From NCBI GenBank assembly GCA_045047115.1, contig JASFYR010000011.1, forward strand, positions 1-63,035: a stretch of DNA of 63,035 bases, written 5' to 3'. Position 1 is the first letter of the stretch; every line of letters begins with the position of its first letter. The notes beneath the pieces are model-generated. The model was not told where the DNA came from. It did no database searches and was given only the letters and a program-made list of their open reading frames with translations. The translations under genes were made by a program, and so were the position numbers. This stretch comes from Sulfurospirillum sp. Lineage in GTDB: Bacteria > Campylobacterota > Campylobacteria > Campylobacterales > Sulfurospirillaceae. Shown in pieces: positions 2,196 through 45,737 of the stretch.

Positions 2196-2366
2196 CAGAG
2201 CACCGGCCCGTGCTTTAGTAGAGCGTGAATTGACCAGAAATTCACTTTCTGGTTAAGATGACAGTTAAACAAAGTAATACGACCGCAAGGTTGTGCTTTA
2301 GTAGCGTGTGAATTGTTTAGGAATTCACTTCCTAAACAAGATGACAGTTAAACAGGAGAATATATG
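2196..2366 (+). repeat. Two tandem 83 bp structured units in the infA leader, distantly related to the 80 bp element
   Basis: GTGCTTTAGTAG (2210, 2293), GTGAATTG (2225, 2308) and GATGACAGTTAAACA (2257, 2340) repeat with period 83. The 11 bp stems differ in sequence but both pair and share the loop TTCAC. Confidence 0.85.
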
Positions 2367-26872: not shown

Positions 26873-27966
26873 CTTTAGACCAATATAAAAATGCGATAGA
26901 ACAGAGTAATATAGTTTCTAAAACAGATATAAACGGTATAATAACTTTTGTAAATGATGAGTTTTGTAAGATTTTTGAATACACAAGAGAGGAGCTCATA
27001 GGTAAAAATCATAATATCGTTAGACATCCTGATGTCCCAAAAGAGATATTTAAGAGTCTATGGGATACGATTTTGGCAAAAAAGACATATAAAGCGATGG
27101 TGAAAAACCTCTCAAAATACGGCAAAACTCTCTATGTAAATACAACCGTGATACCTATCTTAGATAAAAGAGGAGAAATAGAAGAGTTTATCGCCATAAG
27201 ATACGATATGACTGAGAGTGTAGAGTTGGCACGCCAAATGCAGGAAAAAGACAGATTTCTTTTTCAACAGTCCAGGCTTGCTGCAATGGGAGAGATGATA
27301 GGAAATATCGCACATCAATGGCGTCAGCCTCTAAATGAGCTAGGTATCACTGTTTATCAAATGAAAAAATTTTTTTTATCTGATAAAAGAGAGAAAGAAT
27401 TTTTGCAGAGTTATGATCACTCTAAAGATGTGATAAAAAAAATGTCGAGCACTATAGAGGATTTTAGGAATTTTTTTAATCCGAATAAACAAAAAGAGAT
27501 ATTTCTTTTAAGAGATGCGATTGATGAGCTTTTAAGGATGATGCAAGGAAGTATACAGAGGCACTCTTTGCATATAGAGGCAGAAAACAAGAAAAAGATT
27601 TATATATATGGGTTTTTTAATGAATTTAATCAAGTGATGTTAAATCTTATAAATAACTCAAAAGATGCTTTTAATCAAAGAAAAATTAAAAAAAGAGAGA
27701 TTAAAATTGCAGTTGATATAGATGAAAAGCAAAATGCAGTTATCATATACAGTGATAATGCTAAAGGTATAGATGAAAATATAATAGATAAGATTTTTGA
27801 TCCATATTTTACAACCAAACATTCAAGTGAGGGGACAGGATTGGGATTATACATGAGTGAAATGATAATTCAAAAAAGTATGAGCGGAAGTATAAAAGCC
27901 TATAATAACAAAAATGGTGCAACATTTGAGATAAAGATACCTGCACTAAAGGAGACAGTAAAATGA
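26869..27966 (+). CDS. Cytoplasmic PAS-domain sensor histidine kinase
   Basis: PAS (SKTD..G.ITFVN..F, HNIVRHPD), H-box IAHQWRQPL, DPYFTTK, GTGLGL. ATG 26869 overlaps the upstream stop. Confidence 0.93.
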   Translation: MTLDQYKNAIEQSNIVSKTDINGIITFVNDEFCKIFEYTREELIGKNHNIVRHPDVPKEIFKSLWDTILAKKTYKAMVKNLSKYGKTLYVNTTVIPILDKRGEIEEFIAIRYDMTESVELARQMQEKDRFLFQQSRLAAMGEMIGNIAHQWRQPLNELGITVYQMKKFFLSDKREKEFLQSYDHSKDVIKKMSSTIEDFRNFFNPNKQKEIFLLRDAIDELLRMMQGSIQRHSLHIEAENKKKIYIYGFFNEFNQVMLNLINNSKDAFNQRKIKKREIKIAVDIDEKQNAVIIYSDNAKGIDENIIDKIFDPYFTTKHSSEGTGLGLYMSEMIIQKSMSGSIKAYNNKNGATFEIKIPALKETVK

Positions 27967-28046
27967 AATATTCTATGCGAAGCATAAGCAATAGTCACGA
28001 GGAATTTAACTTGGGCTTTGCTCAAGTCAAAGGAGACAATAAAATG
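27963..28046 (+). repeat. Single 81 bp copy of the RBS-associated two-hairpin element between kinase and regulator
   Basis: ATGAAATATTCTATGCGAAGCATAAGC..GAGGAATTTAACTTGGGCTTTGCTCAAGTCAAAGGAGACAATAAAATG closely matches 1-80. Confidence 0.9.
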
Positions 28047-28715
28047 AATAATTTAAAAACACTTACGGTTTTATTTGTAGAAGATGAAAGCAATATAAGA
28101 ACAGCGCTGAAAAAAGCTATAAGTGATGAATTTAAAAACTTTATTTTGGCGAGAGACGGTAGTGAGGGTTTGAAAAAATTTCAAAAGTATAAGCCTGATA
28201 TCGTCATAACTGATATAATGATGCCTATAATTGATGGTTTGGAAATGTCAAGGGAGATTAAGAAGATTTCACGGGATACGCCAATTGTGGTATTGAGTGC
28301 TTTTGATGAAAAAGAGAGACTCATGAGTGCCATAAATATAGGTATAGATAAGTATTTGATGAAGCCCATTGACGCAGATGAGCTTTTGAGTACGCTTAAA
28401 TATATTTCAAAAGATATGCTTTCTCTCGGTGATACAATTGACCTTGGAAATGGATATATTTTTGATAAAATTGCAAGAGTTTTGATTAAGGATGGCAAGA
28501 CCATACCTCTTACTAAAAAAGAACTTCTCTTTATATCAATTTTGGTAAAAAATCTTGGTGCCTATGTGCTTCATGAAGAGTTAAAAAAGTATGTATGGAC
28601 AAATAAAAATGTCAGTGATGCAGCCATCAGAACATTTGTAAAAAGAGTCAGAGGAAAAACTGATAAAAACTTTATAGAAAATATTCCGGGGCTTGGATAC
28701 AAAATTAGTCTGTAA
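28044..28715 (+). CDS. OmpR-family response regulator
   Basis: FVEDE, ITDIMMP..DG, KP, winged-helix C-terminus (RTFVKRVR, GLGYK). The 27 upstream in-frame codons are repeat-derived. Confidence 0.93.
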   Translation: MNNLKTLTVLFVEDESNIRTALKKAISDEFKNFILARDGSEGLKKFQKYKPDIVITDIMMPIIDGLEMSREIKKISRDTPIVVLSAFDEKERLMSAINIGIDKYLMKPIDADELLSTLKYISKDMLSLGDTIDLGNGYIFDKIARVLIKDGKTIPLTKKELLFISILVKNLGAYVLHEELKKYVWTNKNVSDAAIRTFVKRVRGKTDKNFIENIPGLGYKISL

Positions 28716-39270: not shown

Positions 39271-39398
39271 AGTCAAGGGTAAAATAATCTTATATTTTAC
39301 TGAAATTCAGCTATATAAAAGTTTTATTTAACTACAATCACACTTCGATAAAAAGATATGAAAACAATCTAACAAAAAGCATAAGCATCAGGGTGAGA

Positions 39399-39586
39399 TA
39401 AACACTCTGCATAAAGTGCAAGCACAAGTTCGAGGAATTTTTGATGGGCTTTCAAGGAAGCATTGCTAACGCGACCGCATTTGCTTGCTTTGCCCCGATA
39501 AGATGTAAACACTCTGCATAAAGTGCAAGCTTTAGTGAGAGGAATTTTTGATGGGCTTTGCCCATAAAAAAGGAGAAATTAAATGA
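39399..39586 (+). repeat. Two copies of the RBS-associated two-hairpin element in the rplM leader (first copy carries a 39 nt insert)
   Basis: TAAACACTCTGCATAAAGTGCAAGC at 39399 and 39506, and GAGGAATTTTTGATGGGCTTT in both. The second has AGCTTTAGTGAGAGGAATTT identical to position 21-40. Confidence 0.88.
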
Positions 39587-40014
39587 AAACAACTATTGCC
39601 GTAAAAGCATGTGATGTAAAAAGAGACTGGGTTGTTGTAGATGCTGCAGGGAAAAAATTCGGTAGGGTTCTTACTGAAGTAGCAACACTTCTAAGAGGTA
39701 AGCATAAGCCTTACTTCACTCCAAATGTTGATTGCGGTGACTTTGTAGTCATCATCAATGCAGAAAAAGTAGAGTTTAGTGGAAATAAACTAAACACAAA
39801 ACTTTACCATAGACATACAGGATATTTTGGTGGTGTTAAGAGCGATAAACTCGAAGACTTGCTAAAAAATAATCCTGCTAAATTATATAGACTGGCAGTT
39901 AGAGGAATGTTGCCAAAAACAAACCTTGCTAAAAATATGATAAAAAAACTTAAAGTATATGCTGGCAGTGAGCATCCTCACACAGCGCAAATAAGCAAAG
40001 TGGAGGACAAGTAG
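39583..40014 (+). CDS. rplM: 50S ribosomal protein L13
   Basis: LRGKHKP.FTP.VDCGD, AVRGMLPK, HPH.AQ. Confidence 0.98.
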   Translation: MKTTIAVKACDVKRDWVVVDAAGKKFGRVLTEVATLLRGKHKPYFTPNVDCGDFVVIINAEKVEFSGNKLNTKLYHRHTGYFGGVKSDKLEDLLKNNPAKLYRLAVRGMLPKTNLAKNMIKKLKVYAGSEHPHTAQISKVEDK

Positions 40015-41887: not shown

Positions 41888-41965
41888 TAGGATAAAATAA
41901 GTCTCATTTACCTTTTATTTATAAAAGGTTACTATTTGTTTAGGCTTTAATCATATAATTTCACT

Positions 41966-42056
41966 ACCAAGACGCAACCCTCCTTTTTAGAAAACGAATA
42001 TTTTTTTTTAAAATCAGCGTTCGAGATGCCCACCTTGAACGCTGATTTTATGTTTT
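41966..42056 (+). ncRNA. Candidate sRNA, copy 1 (C-rich anti-SD motifs)
   Basis: TATAAT 41954-41959; ACCAAGACGCAACCCTCCTTTT; 17 bp stem 42009-42050 with loop ATGCCCAC; paralog at 44136. Confidence 0.65.
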
Positions 42057-42060
42057 GACT

Positions 42061-43146
42061 TTACTCTACAAAAATTAAAAAAAAAAAAACGATAAAAAGT
42101 ATAAAGTTTAAAAATCCCTCTAGTACATTTGTTTCACCATCATTAAAATGAACGATACTCACTACTAAAGTTATTCCTATCATCGTCATCTGAAGTGGAG
42201 TAAGAGCCAAATCTATGTTAAAGTGCATAATTTCAGCTACCACTATAACGCTTGGAACCGTTAAAAGAAGTGTTGCGAGGCTTGCTCCAAGGGCTATGTT
42301 TATGACAGTTTGCATATTGTTATTTGATGCTGACTTTATAGCGGTTATCAGCTCAGGCGAAGCGGATATGACAGCTACCACAAAGGCACCAAGAGTTATA
42401 GGAAGTCCTATGGATTCTATGCTGTTGCCCATAAAAAGAGCCAGAAGTTCTGAAAGCAGTCCTATAATCACAATAGATACAGAGAGTATGACGGCATGAT
42501 ATAGTCCGTTAATCTTAGCAATATTTATGTATTCTTGCTCTGTTTTTTGATTGCTTTGATAGTTATATGTAAAAAAATACTTATGGTTTTTGAGCTGAAT
42601 TTTTGTAAAGAGTATATAGAGCATGGCAAAAGCAACGACTACAAAGTTTTCATACATTATCAGATTTTTATCTGGTATAAAATGAGGAAGTACCATGGCT
42701 ATCGTAAAAGCGACTATGAGCATAGATATATATGAGTTGGATGAGTCCATGTTGTACTTTTGCTCACCGTATTTGATACCGCCTATAAAAGCACAGATAC
42801 CTAAAAGCCCATTTATGTCTAGCATCACAGCTGAATATATAGTATCTCTTGCGAGTGTCGGACTATGGGCATTTGTCATCATAATAACGATGATAACTAT
42901 CTCTACGATGACAGCGGAGATAGTGAGTATGAGTGTGCCATAAGGTTCACCATACTTTTTGGCGAGTTTTTCTGCATGATGAGCGACATTGATAGCGGAA
43001 TAGATGATGACGGAAAATATAAGCAAAAAACCGATGATATTTCCTATTATACTGCTCTCTAGCATGTGTTCAAGTGCAAATACACCTATTAAGCATACAA
43101 GTGATAACCAAAGAGCTTTTTCACCCAAGAGTTTGCTAATCTCCAT
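42061..43146 (-). CDS. Ca2+/H+ antiporter (ChaA/CaCA family)
   Basis: GEPYGTLILT...E, LARDT, SPE, NIALGA, TNVLEG. Confidence 0.9.
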   Translation of the reverse strand: MEISKLLGEKALWLSLVCLIGVFALEHMLESSIIGNIIGFLLIFSVIIYSAINVAHHAEKLAKKYGEPYGTLILTISAVIVEIVIIVIMMTNAHSPTLARDTIYSAVMLDINGLLGICAFIGGIKYGEQKYNMDSSNSYISMLIVAFTIAMVLPHFIPDKNLIMYENFVVVAFAMLYILFTKIQLKNHKYFFTYNYQSNQKTEQEYINIAKINGLYHAVILSVSIVIIGLLSELLALFMGNSIESIGLPITLGAFVVAVISASPELITAIKSASNNNMQTVINIALGASLATLLLTVPSVIVVAEIMHFNIDLALTPLQMTMIGITLVVSIVHFNDGETNVLEGFLNFILFIVFFFLIFVE

Positions 43147-44002: not shown

Positions 44003-44135
44003 GATAAATCCTTTAAAATTTATACAAATTATACCATATTTAAACTAGCGCTATAATCGGAAGTTTAACCGGTTTATTTACTTTATGTTTGATATAGGTT
44101 GTTTTTTATTTAATATATAATCCTATACTTTCATT

Positions 44136-44214
44136 ACCAAGACGCAACCCTCCTTTTAAAACGAATATGTTTTTAAGATTAGCGTTCGAGATGCCCACCT
44201 CGAACGCTTTTTTT
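44136..44214 (+). ncRNA. Candidate sRNA, copy 2
   Basis: TATACT 44124-44129; identical 5' 22 nt; perfect 10 bp stem 44181-44208 with loop ATGCCCAC followed by a T-run. Confidence 0.65.
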
Positions 44215-44243
44215 ATGTCTAAATCTTATGGTATAATCTCAAA

Positions 44244-45737
44244 ATGAAAAACTTAATTTTTATACTAATTTTTATCGTTTCGCTTGATGCTTCAACTCTT
44301 AGACTCTCTATCAGCGCAAATCCGAGTCGAATAAATCCGATACTCTCAACAGACAGCTCAAGCAGTGAGATAACACAGTGGATATTTAACTCTCTTATCA
44401 CTTATGACAAAAATGCAAAAATCAAGATGATGTTGGCTGGTAGCTATGAGTTTCAAAATGATACTACGCTTATTTTTCATCTCAAACATGGAGTTAAGTG
44501 GAGTGATGGAGCTCCCTTTAGTGCCAAAGATGTACTTTTTACTTATAAAACTATCATTTCGCCCAAAATTTTCACTCCATACTCATCAAGTTTTAAACAT
44601 ATCAAAAGTGTTACCGCACTGGATGATTATACGCTCAAGGTGGTATATAAGTATCCGTATTTTAAAGCACTTGAAACATGGATGATGGAGATTTTACCTG
44701 AGCATCTTCTAAAAAATGAAAAAAATATGATGACAAGCAAATTTAATCAAGCCCCTATCGGCACAGGACCTTATATACTGAAGAAATTTTCTATATCAAA
44801 TGACATAGTTTTGAGGGCAAATCCTGGTTACTTCATACATAAGCCCTATATTGATGAGATAGTTTATCACTATCTTCCCGATAGTTCGGCAAATTTTTTA
44901 ATGTTAAAATCAGGTCTTTTGGATGTTGGCTCACTTACGCCCTTGCAACTTGAGAGACAGATAGACAGCGGTTTTAAAAAGAGGTTTAGTATCTATGAGT
45001 CGCCTTCTCACTCCTACTCATACATAGGCTTCAACCTTAAAAATCCAAAGTTTCAAGATCCTCTCGTACGCAGAGCTCTTTCGCTGGCTATAAACAGACA
45101 AGAGTTGGCAAAAGTGATGTTCTTTGGACATGCAAAAGTGTGTACTGGTCCTTTTTTACCGGGAACTGGAGCATTTAATCCACTTGTTTTAGCTCCCAAG
45201 CAAGATATCCCAAAGGCAAAAGAGCTCCTTAAGCAGGCAGGCTATGATAAAAATCATCCTCTGAGTTTTGAACTTTCAACAAACACGGGTTCCATTAGAA
45301 CATACATGGCGCAAATCCTCCAATCCCAGCTGAGAAAAGCGGGAGTAATAGTAAAACTTCGTATCATGGAGTGGCAAGCTTTTTTAAATACAGTAGTGAT
45401 GCCAAAAAGATTTGAAACTGTACTTCTGGCATGGTCTGTTGGCCTTAAGCCTGATGCTTACAGCATATGGGACAGTAAGTCATATAAAAAAGGCGGTTTT
45501 AATTTTATAGGATATAAAAATAAAGAGGTTGACAGACTCATAGAAAAAGCTGAAAAGACAGTGGATAATAAAAAGTTTGACTCAATCTATCGAAAAATTT
45601 TCAAACTAATCACAGATGATAATCCATATCTCTTTTTGGTGATTCCAAACTCTATAACAGTAGTAAATAAAAAGATTCATCCCGTAAGTCCTTCTATCAT
45701 AGGCGTAATGCACAATGAGATACAGTGGAAAAAATAG
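44244..45737 (+). CDS. Peptide ABC transporter substrate-binding protein (family 5)
   Basis: Signal peptide, GVKWSDG.PF.AKDV.FT, PIGTGPY, VRRALS.AINR. Confidence 0.92.
   Translation: MKNLIFILIFIVSLDASTLRLSISANPSRINPILSTDSSSSEITQWIFNSLITYDKNAKIKMMLAGSYEFQNDTTLIFHLKHGVKWSDGAPFSAKDVLFTYKTIISPKIFTPYSSSFKHIKSVTALDDYTLKVVYKYPYFKALETWMMEILPEHLLKNEKNMMTSKFNQAPIGTGPYILKKFSISNDIVLRANPGYFIHKPYIDEIVYHYLPDSSANFLMLKSGLLDVGSLTPLQLERQIDSGFKKRFSIYESPSHSYSYIGFNLKNPKFQDPLVRRALSLAINRQELAKVMFFGHAKVCTGPFLPGTGAFNPLVLAPKQDIPKAKELLKQAGYDKNHPLSFELSTNTGSIRTYMAQILQSQLRKAGVIVKLRIMEWQAFLNTVVMPKRFETVLLAWSVGLKPDAYSIWDSKSYKKGGFNFIGYKNKEVDRLIEKAEKTVDNKKFDSIYRKIFKLITDDNPYLFLVIPNSITVVNKKIHPVSPSIIGVMHNEIQWKK

Follow-up and report, generated by a model that had tools for sequence, protein, structure and literature searches.

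Neisseria REP2 and Borrelia IR-A/B repeats, in the passages of PMC3184786 that describe them, contain two stem-loops predicted at the RNA level, a promoter, a site for ribosome binding, and an ATG and lie directly upstream of genes. REP2 is there given as 120 to 150 bp long, present in about 23 to 26 copies, and carrying its promoter inside (PMC3184786). The mycobacterial MIRU (Supply et al. 1997) appear in the same passages as 40- to 100-bp co-transcribed units of polycistronic operons, whose small open reading frames overlap the flanking genes, whose sites are empty or filled in different species, and whose tandem number varies (PMC3184786). REP/BIME sequences with RAYT transposases and Correia- or ERIC-type MITEs are dispersed, intergenic, hairpin forming, and transcribed and can alter mRNA stability (see PMC3479197). 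Here we describe a repeat of Sulfurospirillum sp. that we compare with these systems. The spacer between map and infA probably consists of two copies of a dispersed, sense-oriented, two-hairpin intercistronic repeat, which would serve as a portable structured spacer with no specificity for IF-1. Such a genome-wide account would replace a gene-specific regulatory story.

The window (the entire 63,035-nt stretch of DNA that was analyzed) carries secY (157-1419, Pfam SecY match), a 252-codon open reading frame that the sequence-only reading of this DNA had called map (1419-2177), and infA (2364-2582, Pfam eIF-1a/IF-1, E = 7e-27). The 186-nt spacer between map and infA is filled by two direct 83-nt units, as that reading had proposed; segments 2210-2271 and 2293-2354 share 82% identity and begin 83 nt apart. 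Both units lie on the + strand and belong to type C, which lacks a Shine-Dalgarno (SD) sequence. Unit 1 (2196-2270), supported by repeat and inverted-repeat analysis and covariance models, comprises a degenerate hairpin P1 (2196-2213), GCTTTAGT (2212-2219), a linker with GAATT (2220-2231), hairpin P2 (2230-2256) with the loop TTCAC (2241-2245), and the tail AAGATGACAGTTAAAC (2255-2270). Unit 2 (2278-2353), supported by inverted-repeat analysis and covariance model R2, comprises P1 (2279-2294), GCTTTAGT (2295-2302), the linker with GAATT (2303-2314), P2 (2313-2339) with the loop TTCAC (2324-2328), and a tail (2338-2353). Its P1 is the hairpin ACGACC-GCAA-GGTTGT, which had been recognized earlier, with a possible T2278.G2295 extension.

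The P2 stem of unit 2 (2313-2323/2329-2339) is 11 nt long and 100% complementary, and that of unit 1 (2230-2240/2246-2256), also of 11 nt, is 91% Watson-Crick, the odd pair being G.U. The two 11-bp stems, the shared TTCAC loop, and the compensatory changes between the units were thus correctly read from the letters alone. Both tails read AAGATGACA and contain no SD. The native infA SD, AGGAG (2354-2358), and the ATG (2364-2366) form a + strand segment, 2354-2366, outside the repeat unit. The earlier statement that only unit 2 retains a ribosome binding site needs one correction: this AGGAG stands 3' of the unit 2 tail and belongs to neither unit. Relatives without the element between map and infA keep an AGGAGG-type SD at that place.

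The sense RNA of 2178-2380 was predicted to fold at -55.8 kcal/mol (z = -3.57), and none of 200 shuffles folded as well; the antisense strand of the same interval was unremarkable (z = -0.91, 37 of 200 shuffles as good). The only inverted repeats in 2170-2370 were the stems and a GTGAATT/AATTCAC pair. A promoter scan limited to the sigma-70 consensus returned one copy-specific 9/12 match at 2230-2259, and the units showed no excess of sigma-70-like sequences that would indicate a conserved promoter (total of 13, compared with 9.3 +/- 2.8 in shuffles). On the other side of infA, the infA-rpmJ spacer (2583-2745) is 163 nt, long for this operon, and contains a TATAAT-like box; its only Rfam match was at chance level (rox2, E = 1.2).

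Iterated nhmmer searches of the 2.14-Mb assembly converged on 78 matches, of which 63 were taken as full-length copies and 15 were left out as partial or cut by a contig end. The assembly holds 10 tandem pairs. It also breaks at the element: 18 of 82 contig ends, the start of the window included, lie within 150 nt of a family match. Covariance model R2 was built from 40 SD-bearing copies and no infA-type copy. It found unit 2 at 56 bits (E = 4.9e-12) and, once filters were switched off, gave 27.4 bits for unit 1 (E = 2e-6 over 601 nt); the R1 model, applied to cut-outs of the locus, scored unit 1 at 69.2 bits. A sequence-only profile of the SD-bearing copies gave E = 0.37 for unit 2 and nothing for unit 1, so the infA units are linked to the SD-bearing copies only by the structure-aware model. 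The sequence-only reading had staked its parallel with the element before secY on a search of this kind, and since a model made of SD-bearing copies alone reaches both infA units, the parallel stands: they form a second subfamily of the same element of about 80 nt. Rfam 15 gave no match at the gathering score in the whole window and, at E values up to 10, three chance-level matches in 1-2800, none overlapping a unit. Full-text searches of the literature outside subscription journals returned no paper describing the element.

From 5' to 3', a unit consists of the P1 hairpin, (A)GCUUUAGU as a conserved single strand, a linker whose last bases are GAAUU, the 11-bp P2, and a tail. The single-stranded motifs, (A)GCUUUAGU among them, are more than 90% conserved, and the two stems vary freely. 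When the 63 copies were aligned by plain MAFFT, P2 was 96.0% paired, and 9 of its 11 pairs had changed on both sides, a count of non-independent events because the copies within a genome are paralogues that exchange modules. None of 500 shuffles reached the observed P2 score, and slid partner columns were only 45 to 65% paired. The remaining two alignments were model fitted and hence lean towards the model; in these, P2 and P1 were 96.3% and 77.1% paired in this genome and 98.2% and 86.9% paired among 98 copies from other genomes. Both hairpins covary strongly, which supports the proposal that selection acts on structure, to the extent that it favours structure more than stem sequence.

P1 typically has two outer and four inner pairs, with a single base bulged between them on the 3' strand, and all six pairs of this model fit in 42 of 61 copies. 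The outer pairs covary as CU/AG (32) versus CA/UG (13), and the AG of AGCUUUAGU was therefore assigned to P1. In paired cells, G.U exceeds A.C (61:18 and 121:23), which points to the sense strand as the folded strand. The fold would act in mRNA and not in duplex DNA. A candidate outer helix between GCUUUAGU and the tail was rejected on inspection, as GCAAU or GCUUC variants occur with no compensating change in the tail.

The copies fall into two subtypes. The main variant has GAG-GAAUU as its linker, and its tail, AAAGGRGACAAUAAAAUG(A), serves as SD and start codon for the gene that follows. The infA variant has the linker GUGU-GAAUU or GCGU-GAAUU and the tail AAGAUGACA, and such a unit stands immediately 5' of the SD that belongs to the gene itself. 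A G precedes GAAUU in 41 of the 63 copies, and 38 or 39 of these 41 have the SD tail; a U, as at infA, precedes it in the other 22, of which 20 end in a tail with no SD, in most cases AAGAUGACA. P2 has two apex forms, GGAAUUYACUUCC and GRGCUUUGCYC, each of which occurs in both subtypes. Thus, linker type and tail type travel together, and the P2 apex that lies between them assorts independently. Read through, the type C units have stops in all three frames.

The distribution of the apex forms bears on the helix formed by GTGAATT and AATTCAC, which had been proposed to exclude the P2 stem. Inverted-repeat analysis confirmed this complementarity in both infA units, but the helix requires the GGAAUUYACUUCC apex. 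Many SD-less copies in this genome have the GCTTTGC-type apex, which was apparently also the majority form among about 90 copies from other genomes when their listing was read by eye. That apex lacks the complementarity, and the alternative helix is therefore not a feature of the family.

Orientation was counted in 74 copies not cut by a contig end, with genes called crudely as longest open reading frames. The nearest downstream gene was co-directional with the unit in 64 of 66 copies and the nearest upstream gene in 58 of 62, against a background of 78% co-directional neighbours. A gene start lies inside the tail in 34 of the 74 copies and within 40 nt in 13 more. Of the 63 full copies, 44 have their own ATG at the unit end, and in 39 of these 44 it reads ATGA. 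An SD plus ATG, the old overlapped stop/start, abuts the 5' side of the unit in 14 copies, and in all 13 of these that have a new ATG, the frame of the old ATG stays open through the unit: 8 such frames end at the ATGA overlap, 3 end within 7 nt, and 2 are in frame with the new ATG. In 27 of the 44 copies, the frame stopping at the TGA of ATGA stays open over 24 codons or more, with or without an upstream ATG; the open relay frame partly follows from the consensus itself. A tail-like sequence is missing from the 5' side of many copies.

Among the 57 downstream proteins, 56 were named by Pfam, and their functions are diverse: translation, transcription, secretion, chaperones, synthesis of amino acids, cofactors, and purines, flagella, and signalling. 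They include SecY, IF-1, L13, L11, L7/L12, RpoC, RpoZ, DnaK, ClpB, and ArgF; LeuB-like, PdxA, PurE, PurS, NadC, FlgG-like, and FliQ-like proteins; and two response regulators, cytochromes c, and SoxZ. The downstream genes form no regulon. A metabolite riboswitch was rejected on the ground that these genes share no coherent function.

The sequence-only reading had suggested a structured leader that switches IF-1 synthesis through the exclusive GTGAATT/AATTCAC helix, and three observations are in line with it. Both infA units can form the alternative 7-bp helix, at least one unit stands at infA in 10 of the 11 genus genomes read, and in one genome of another family the only copy detected lies upstream of infA. 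However, in this genome the element stands before no fewer than 57 different genes, whose functions are unrelated, and SD-less units of the infA type occur before flgG, rpoZ, dnaK, purE, rplK, rplL, cytochrome c genes, soxZ, and others; those with the GCTTTGC apex cannot form the helix at all. Comparison of the map-infA spacers, which had been recommended as a check, showed from 0 (G013) through 1 or 2 to 3 (G010) units within the genus; in the genomes examined from four other genera of the family, the spacer is 10 to 20 nt long, with AGGAGG and no unit. The switch is largely refuted by this distribution, and we regard it as very improbable. Since copies stand ahead of dozens of genes and in many relatives, the element was not made for IF-1 and is a genome-wide element of gene junctions. 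An ancient infA-specific site was likewise rejected: when 20 infA loci of other genera and families were scanned with filters off, only one genome (G026) had an upstream copy, and in one from another genus of the family (G024, L141:1941-2028), a unit lay downstream of infA, before the next gene.

Further copies, all on the + strand, occur elsewhere in the window. Two SD-bearing units (1-80 and 81-160; repeat search and R2) precede secY, which takes its SD and its ATG (157) from the tail of the second; the first letter of the contig falls inside this array. A unit at another contig end of the assembly (C29:42112-42191) is nearly identical to that at 1-80, and because near-identical units stand at both ends, the two contigs probably join. 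Two intergenic segments of about 180 nt (41906-42086 and 44076-44251) are 74 to 78% identical to each other and unrelated to the present family; each has a hairpin of the AGCGTTCGAG...CTTGAACGCT type and ends in ...CAACCCTCCTTTT.

One SD-bearing unit (27967-28047) lies between genes for a histidine kinase-like protein and a response regulator, at an overlapped ATGA. It follows the ATGA and is flanked on both sides by a copy of the 18-nt SD..ATGA segment, 17 of 18 positions being identical. The present genome and G003, the relative closest to it, have the unit at this junction, which is empty in the 10 other genus genomes read. The response regulator most likely starts at the unit's own ATG at 28044 and not at the old ATG at 27963. 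A mechanical open reading frame, 27963-28715, runs through the inserted unit and adds 27 codons to the protein, an example of the false N-terminal extensions that the element causes in open reading frame calls.

The rplM leader holds two units (39401-39586; repeat search and R2). The first (39401-39505) has a 39-nt insert in its P2 loop (39453-39491), and the SD and the ATG (39583) come from the second (39506-39586). ATGAAAACAA is present twice at this locus, at 39358-39367 and at the real start, 39583-39592. None of five relatives has units in the rplM leader, including G003, which is 91% identical in rplM. The 39-nt segment is conserved, stands directly after GCTTT, itself ends in GCTTT, and was found in at least three units of two genomes (also in this genome at C9, near 65181-65250, and at L223:123-252); it is either an optional extra stem or a nested mini-insertion.

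Units are thus gained, lost, and tandemly duplicated at gene junctions among close relatives. Tandem units of one genome can share P2 and differ in P1 (G003 and G008). From three loci, with flanking direct repeats of 18 nt at the kinase-regulator junction and 10 nt at rplM, we infer that copies may enter at start codons through short homology between the unit tail (SD..ATGAAA) and the SD/start region of the target. Expression of the downstream gene would be kept because the unit either carries in a new SD and ATG or does not disturb the native one.

A rival explanation is a purely selfish DNA element of the MITE or REP kind, moved by a host- or IS-encoded single-strand transposase (Y1/RAYT type) that would read its bulged hairpins as DNA; its orientation and phasing would be no more than those of the insertions that survived. 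Presence/absence differences and tandem expansion among close relatives agree with this explanation, as do bulged hairpins that keep their structure while the sequence varies, a behaviour known from hairpin-recognizing HUH systems. The genome has three Y1_Tnp-like genes, two of them RAYT-like and 215 to 262 amino acids long. The excess of G.U over A.C and the sense orientation of 64 of 66 copies agree instead with one transcribed strand being under selection. Inverted-repeat analysis at the infA units found no terminal inverted repeats, and no nhmmer match lies beside the two RAYT-like genes. Y1_Tnp is present in three genomes without the element (G027, G028, and G029) and was not found in four carriers (G018, G021, G025, and G034). 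Plasmid and phage records contained no copy, and the 38 pattern matches in viral contigs, none convincing, scored at most 23 bits, compared with 40 to 98 for true copies. In view of these observations, a selfish origin of this kind seems unlikely.

Several specific candidates of this class were rejected. A Y1/RAYT mobilizer is present in 32 of 41 genomes, is uncorrelated with the element, and does not adjoin copies. A MITE was set aside for lack of terminal inverted repeats, the flanking repeats being 10- to 18-nt copies of the SD/start region, and a REP/REPIN with RAYT was set aside for the strictly sense orientation and the absence of family matches beside RAYT-like genes. The RAYT-like genes of this genome are at C3:14312-14959 (215 amino acids) and C7:19755-20543 (262 amino acids, between comF-like and gyrA), and an IS200-type gene is at C20:19535-19951 (138 amino acids); the repeat flanks none of the three.

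The repeat is widespread in the Campylobacterales. R1 matches, which are not exact copy numbers, were found in 13 of 13 genus genomes (22 to 104 each), in 24 of 24 family genomes (2 to 53 each), and in 41 of 151 genomes of an even sample of the order in which only 28 candidates per genome were scored. In the order, matches concentrate in six families (f1, 8/9; f6, 5/10; f8, 5/10; f11, 8/10; f16, 5/10; f20, 4/9), and with the same 28 candidates per genome, none were found in seven families sampled 6 to 10 times each. A type C 20-mer matches at least 110 stretches, and all 80 matches listed are in metagenome-assembled genomes labelled Sulfurospirillum, Campylobacteraceae, Helicobacteraceae, Campylobacterales, or Campylobacterota. 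Among sequencing runs, all searched as contigs, the best match covered 0.23 of the sampled words, RNA-labelled runs reached at most 0.09, and no usable RNA run contained this sequence. In other families of the order, the single-stranded motifs persist at single-copy sites. A hemB-argF copy is kept in three genomes of one genus (g3; L115, L118, and L119) that have 2 or 3 copies in total, and this may be an old orthologous site; the present genome also has a copy before argF (C25:48560-48629).

The retention of a single-stranded motif across families of the order points to a putative factor that recognizes it specifically. In one such explanation, the units are landing pads for a single conserved factor acting in trans, be it a protein that binds RNA, a nuclease such as RNase Y/J, or a small RNA; it would read (A)GCUUUAGU and the GAGGAAUU linker, and the copies would form a global post-transcriptional network or an operon-punctuation system. 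This agrees with single-stranded motifs that are more than 90% conserved, and persist in other families, while the stems vary, and with an association of linker and tail (38 to 39 of 41 and 20 of 22) that holds despite the independent P2 apex. In addition, neither Hfq nor RNase E/G scored over the cut-off in any of the 151 order genomes, so other factors must organize mRNA fate in this order. Against it, no factor was found, the downstream genes share no function, and the association of linker and tail may be plain subfamily descent; we judge a single-factor landing pad to be distinctly unlikely. With 0 of 151 genomes over the cut-off in each case, both Hfq as a partner and an RNase E site were rejected. 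RNase E follows the rule RN|WUU, which GC|UUU fits.

A Nus-factor antitermination site of the boxB-boxA-boxC kind, or a self-cleaving ribozyme, was also considered. The hairpin, the CUUUA core, and the GUGUG run of type C loosely recall the order of rrn leaders, which is boxB-boxA-boxC, and the tandem structured units had prompted the cleavage idea of the sequence-only reading. However, the rrn leaders of two relatives (G013 and G015) carry GTTCATTA...TTTATCA and not GCTTTAGT, a difference in the boxA-like sequence on which boxA/Nus was rejected. No Rfam ribozyme matched, even at E values up to 10, and we know of no ribozyme core that the conserved nucleotides match. Both possibilities appear extremely improbable.

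Our best guess for the effect on the transcript is that the repeat serves as a portable structured spacer or translation-start cassette. The SD-bearing form would replace the SD and ATG of its target, and the SD-less form would park directly before the native SD, as at infA. P1 would cap the upstream cistron at its 3' end, P2 would stand at the foot of the SD, and a retained old ATG could open a short relay reading frame that ends at the new start. Some 20 to 100 gene junctions per genome across this lineage carry one folded RNA module at the start codon, and the repeat would be among the clearest natural portable translation-start cassettes, with unusually strong covariation and both SD-bearing and SD-less forms. 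It may help to explain how operon mRNA is organized in bacteria without Hfq and RNase E. It also offers VNTR-like markers and is a possible source of natural parts for insulation or bicistronic design.

A broader scheme would make the repeat an RNA punctuation module of the whole order Campylobacterales, rather than a tolerated passenger. A conserved host factor would read the invariant (A)GCUUUAGU/GAGGAAUU single strands, which lie between two hairpins of free sequence, would cut or cap polycistronic mRNA at gene junctions, and would hand ribosomes on to the next start. Handover at the junction would then pass through the built-in SD and the relay frame, and the SD-less form would be used where the native SD is kept. 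We hold this scheme to be rather unlikely; if it is true, engineered bicistronic-design and insulator cassettes would have a natural parallel in this module.

Among described repeats, Neisseria REP2, Borrelia IR, and mycobacterial MIRU appear to be the closest known kind, as far as the cited passages portray them. Like REP2 and the Borrelia IR, the present family is multi-copy, intergenic, and adjacent to gene starts, with two internal stem-loops and no terminal inverted repeats, and it carries its own ribosome binding site and ATG (44 of 63 copies with ATG), which the type C units at infA lack; the likeness is one of description. Unlike REP2 as given there, its units are of about 80 nt and have no conserved sigma-70-like promoter that we could find. 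They are also mostly intercistronic (58 of 62), often tandem, present in several families of an order, and accompanied by an SD-less variant.

The likeness to MIRU, within the same accounts, lies in a sense-oriented position within operons (64 of 66 downstream and 58 of 62 upstream genes co-directional), in a variable tandem number with 0 to 3 units at one junction, and in empty and filled sites. The overlap of MIRU open reading frames with flanking genes may be set beside the 39 of 44 ATGA ends and the open frames found here (13 of 13 with an upstream ATG, 27 of 44 overall). MIRU are G+C rich and actinobacterial; by that description, it is the present family that has a two-hairpin fold with strong covariation and, built in, an extended SD. 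REP/BIME sequences and MITEs are found in either orientation and often follow genes; they carry terminal inverted repeats or form inverted pairs and provide no start codons. Unlike these, the present family is sense oriented, has no terminal inverted repeats, and supplies start codons. We place the family beside REP2, IR, and MIRU without assigning it to any named family; it differs from them in size, lineage, the lack of a detectable promoter, strength of covariation, order-wide spread, and possession of an SD-less form.
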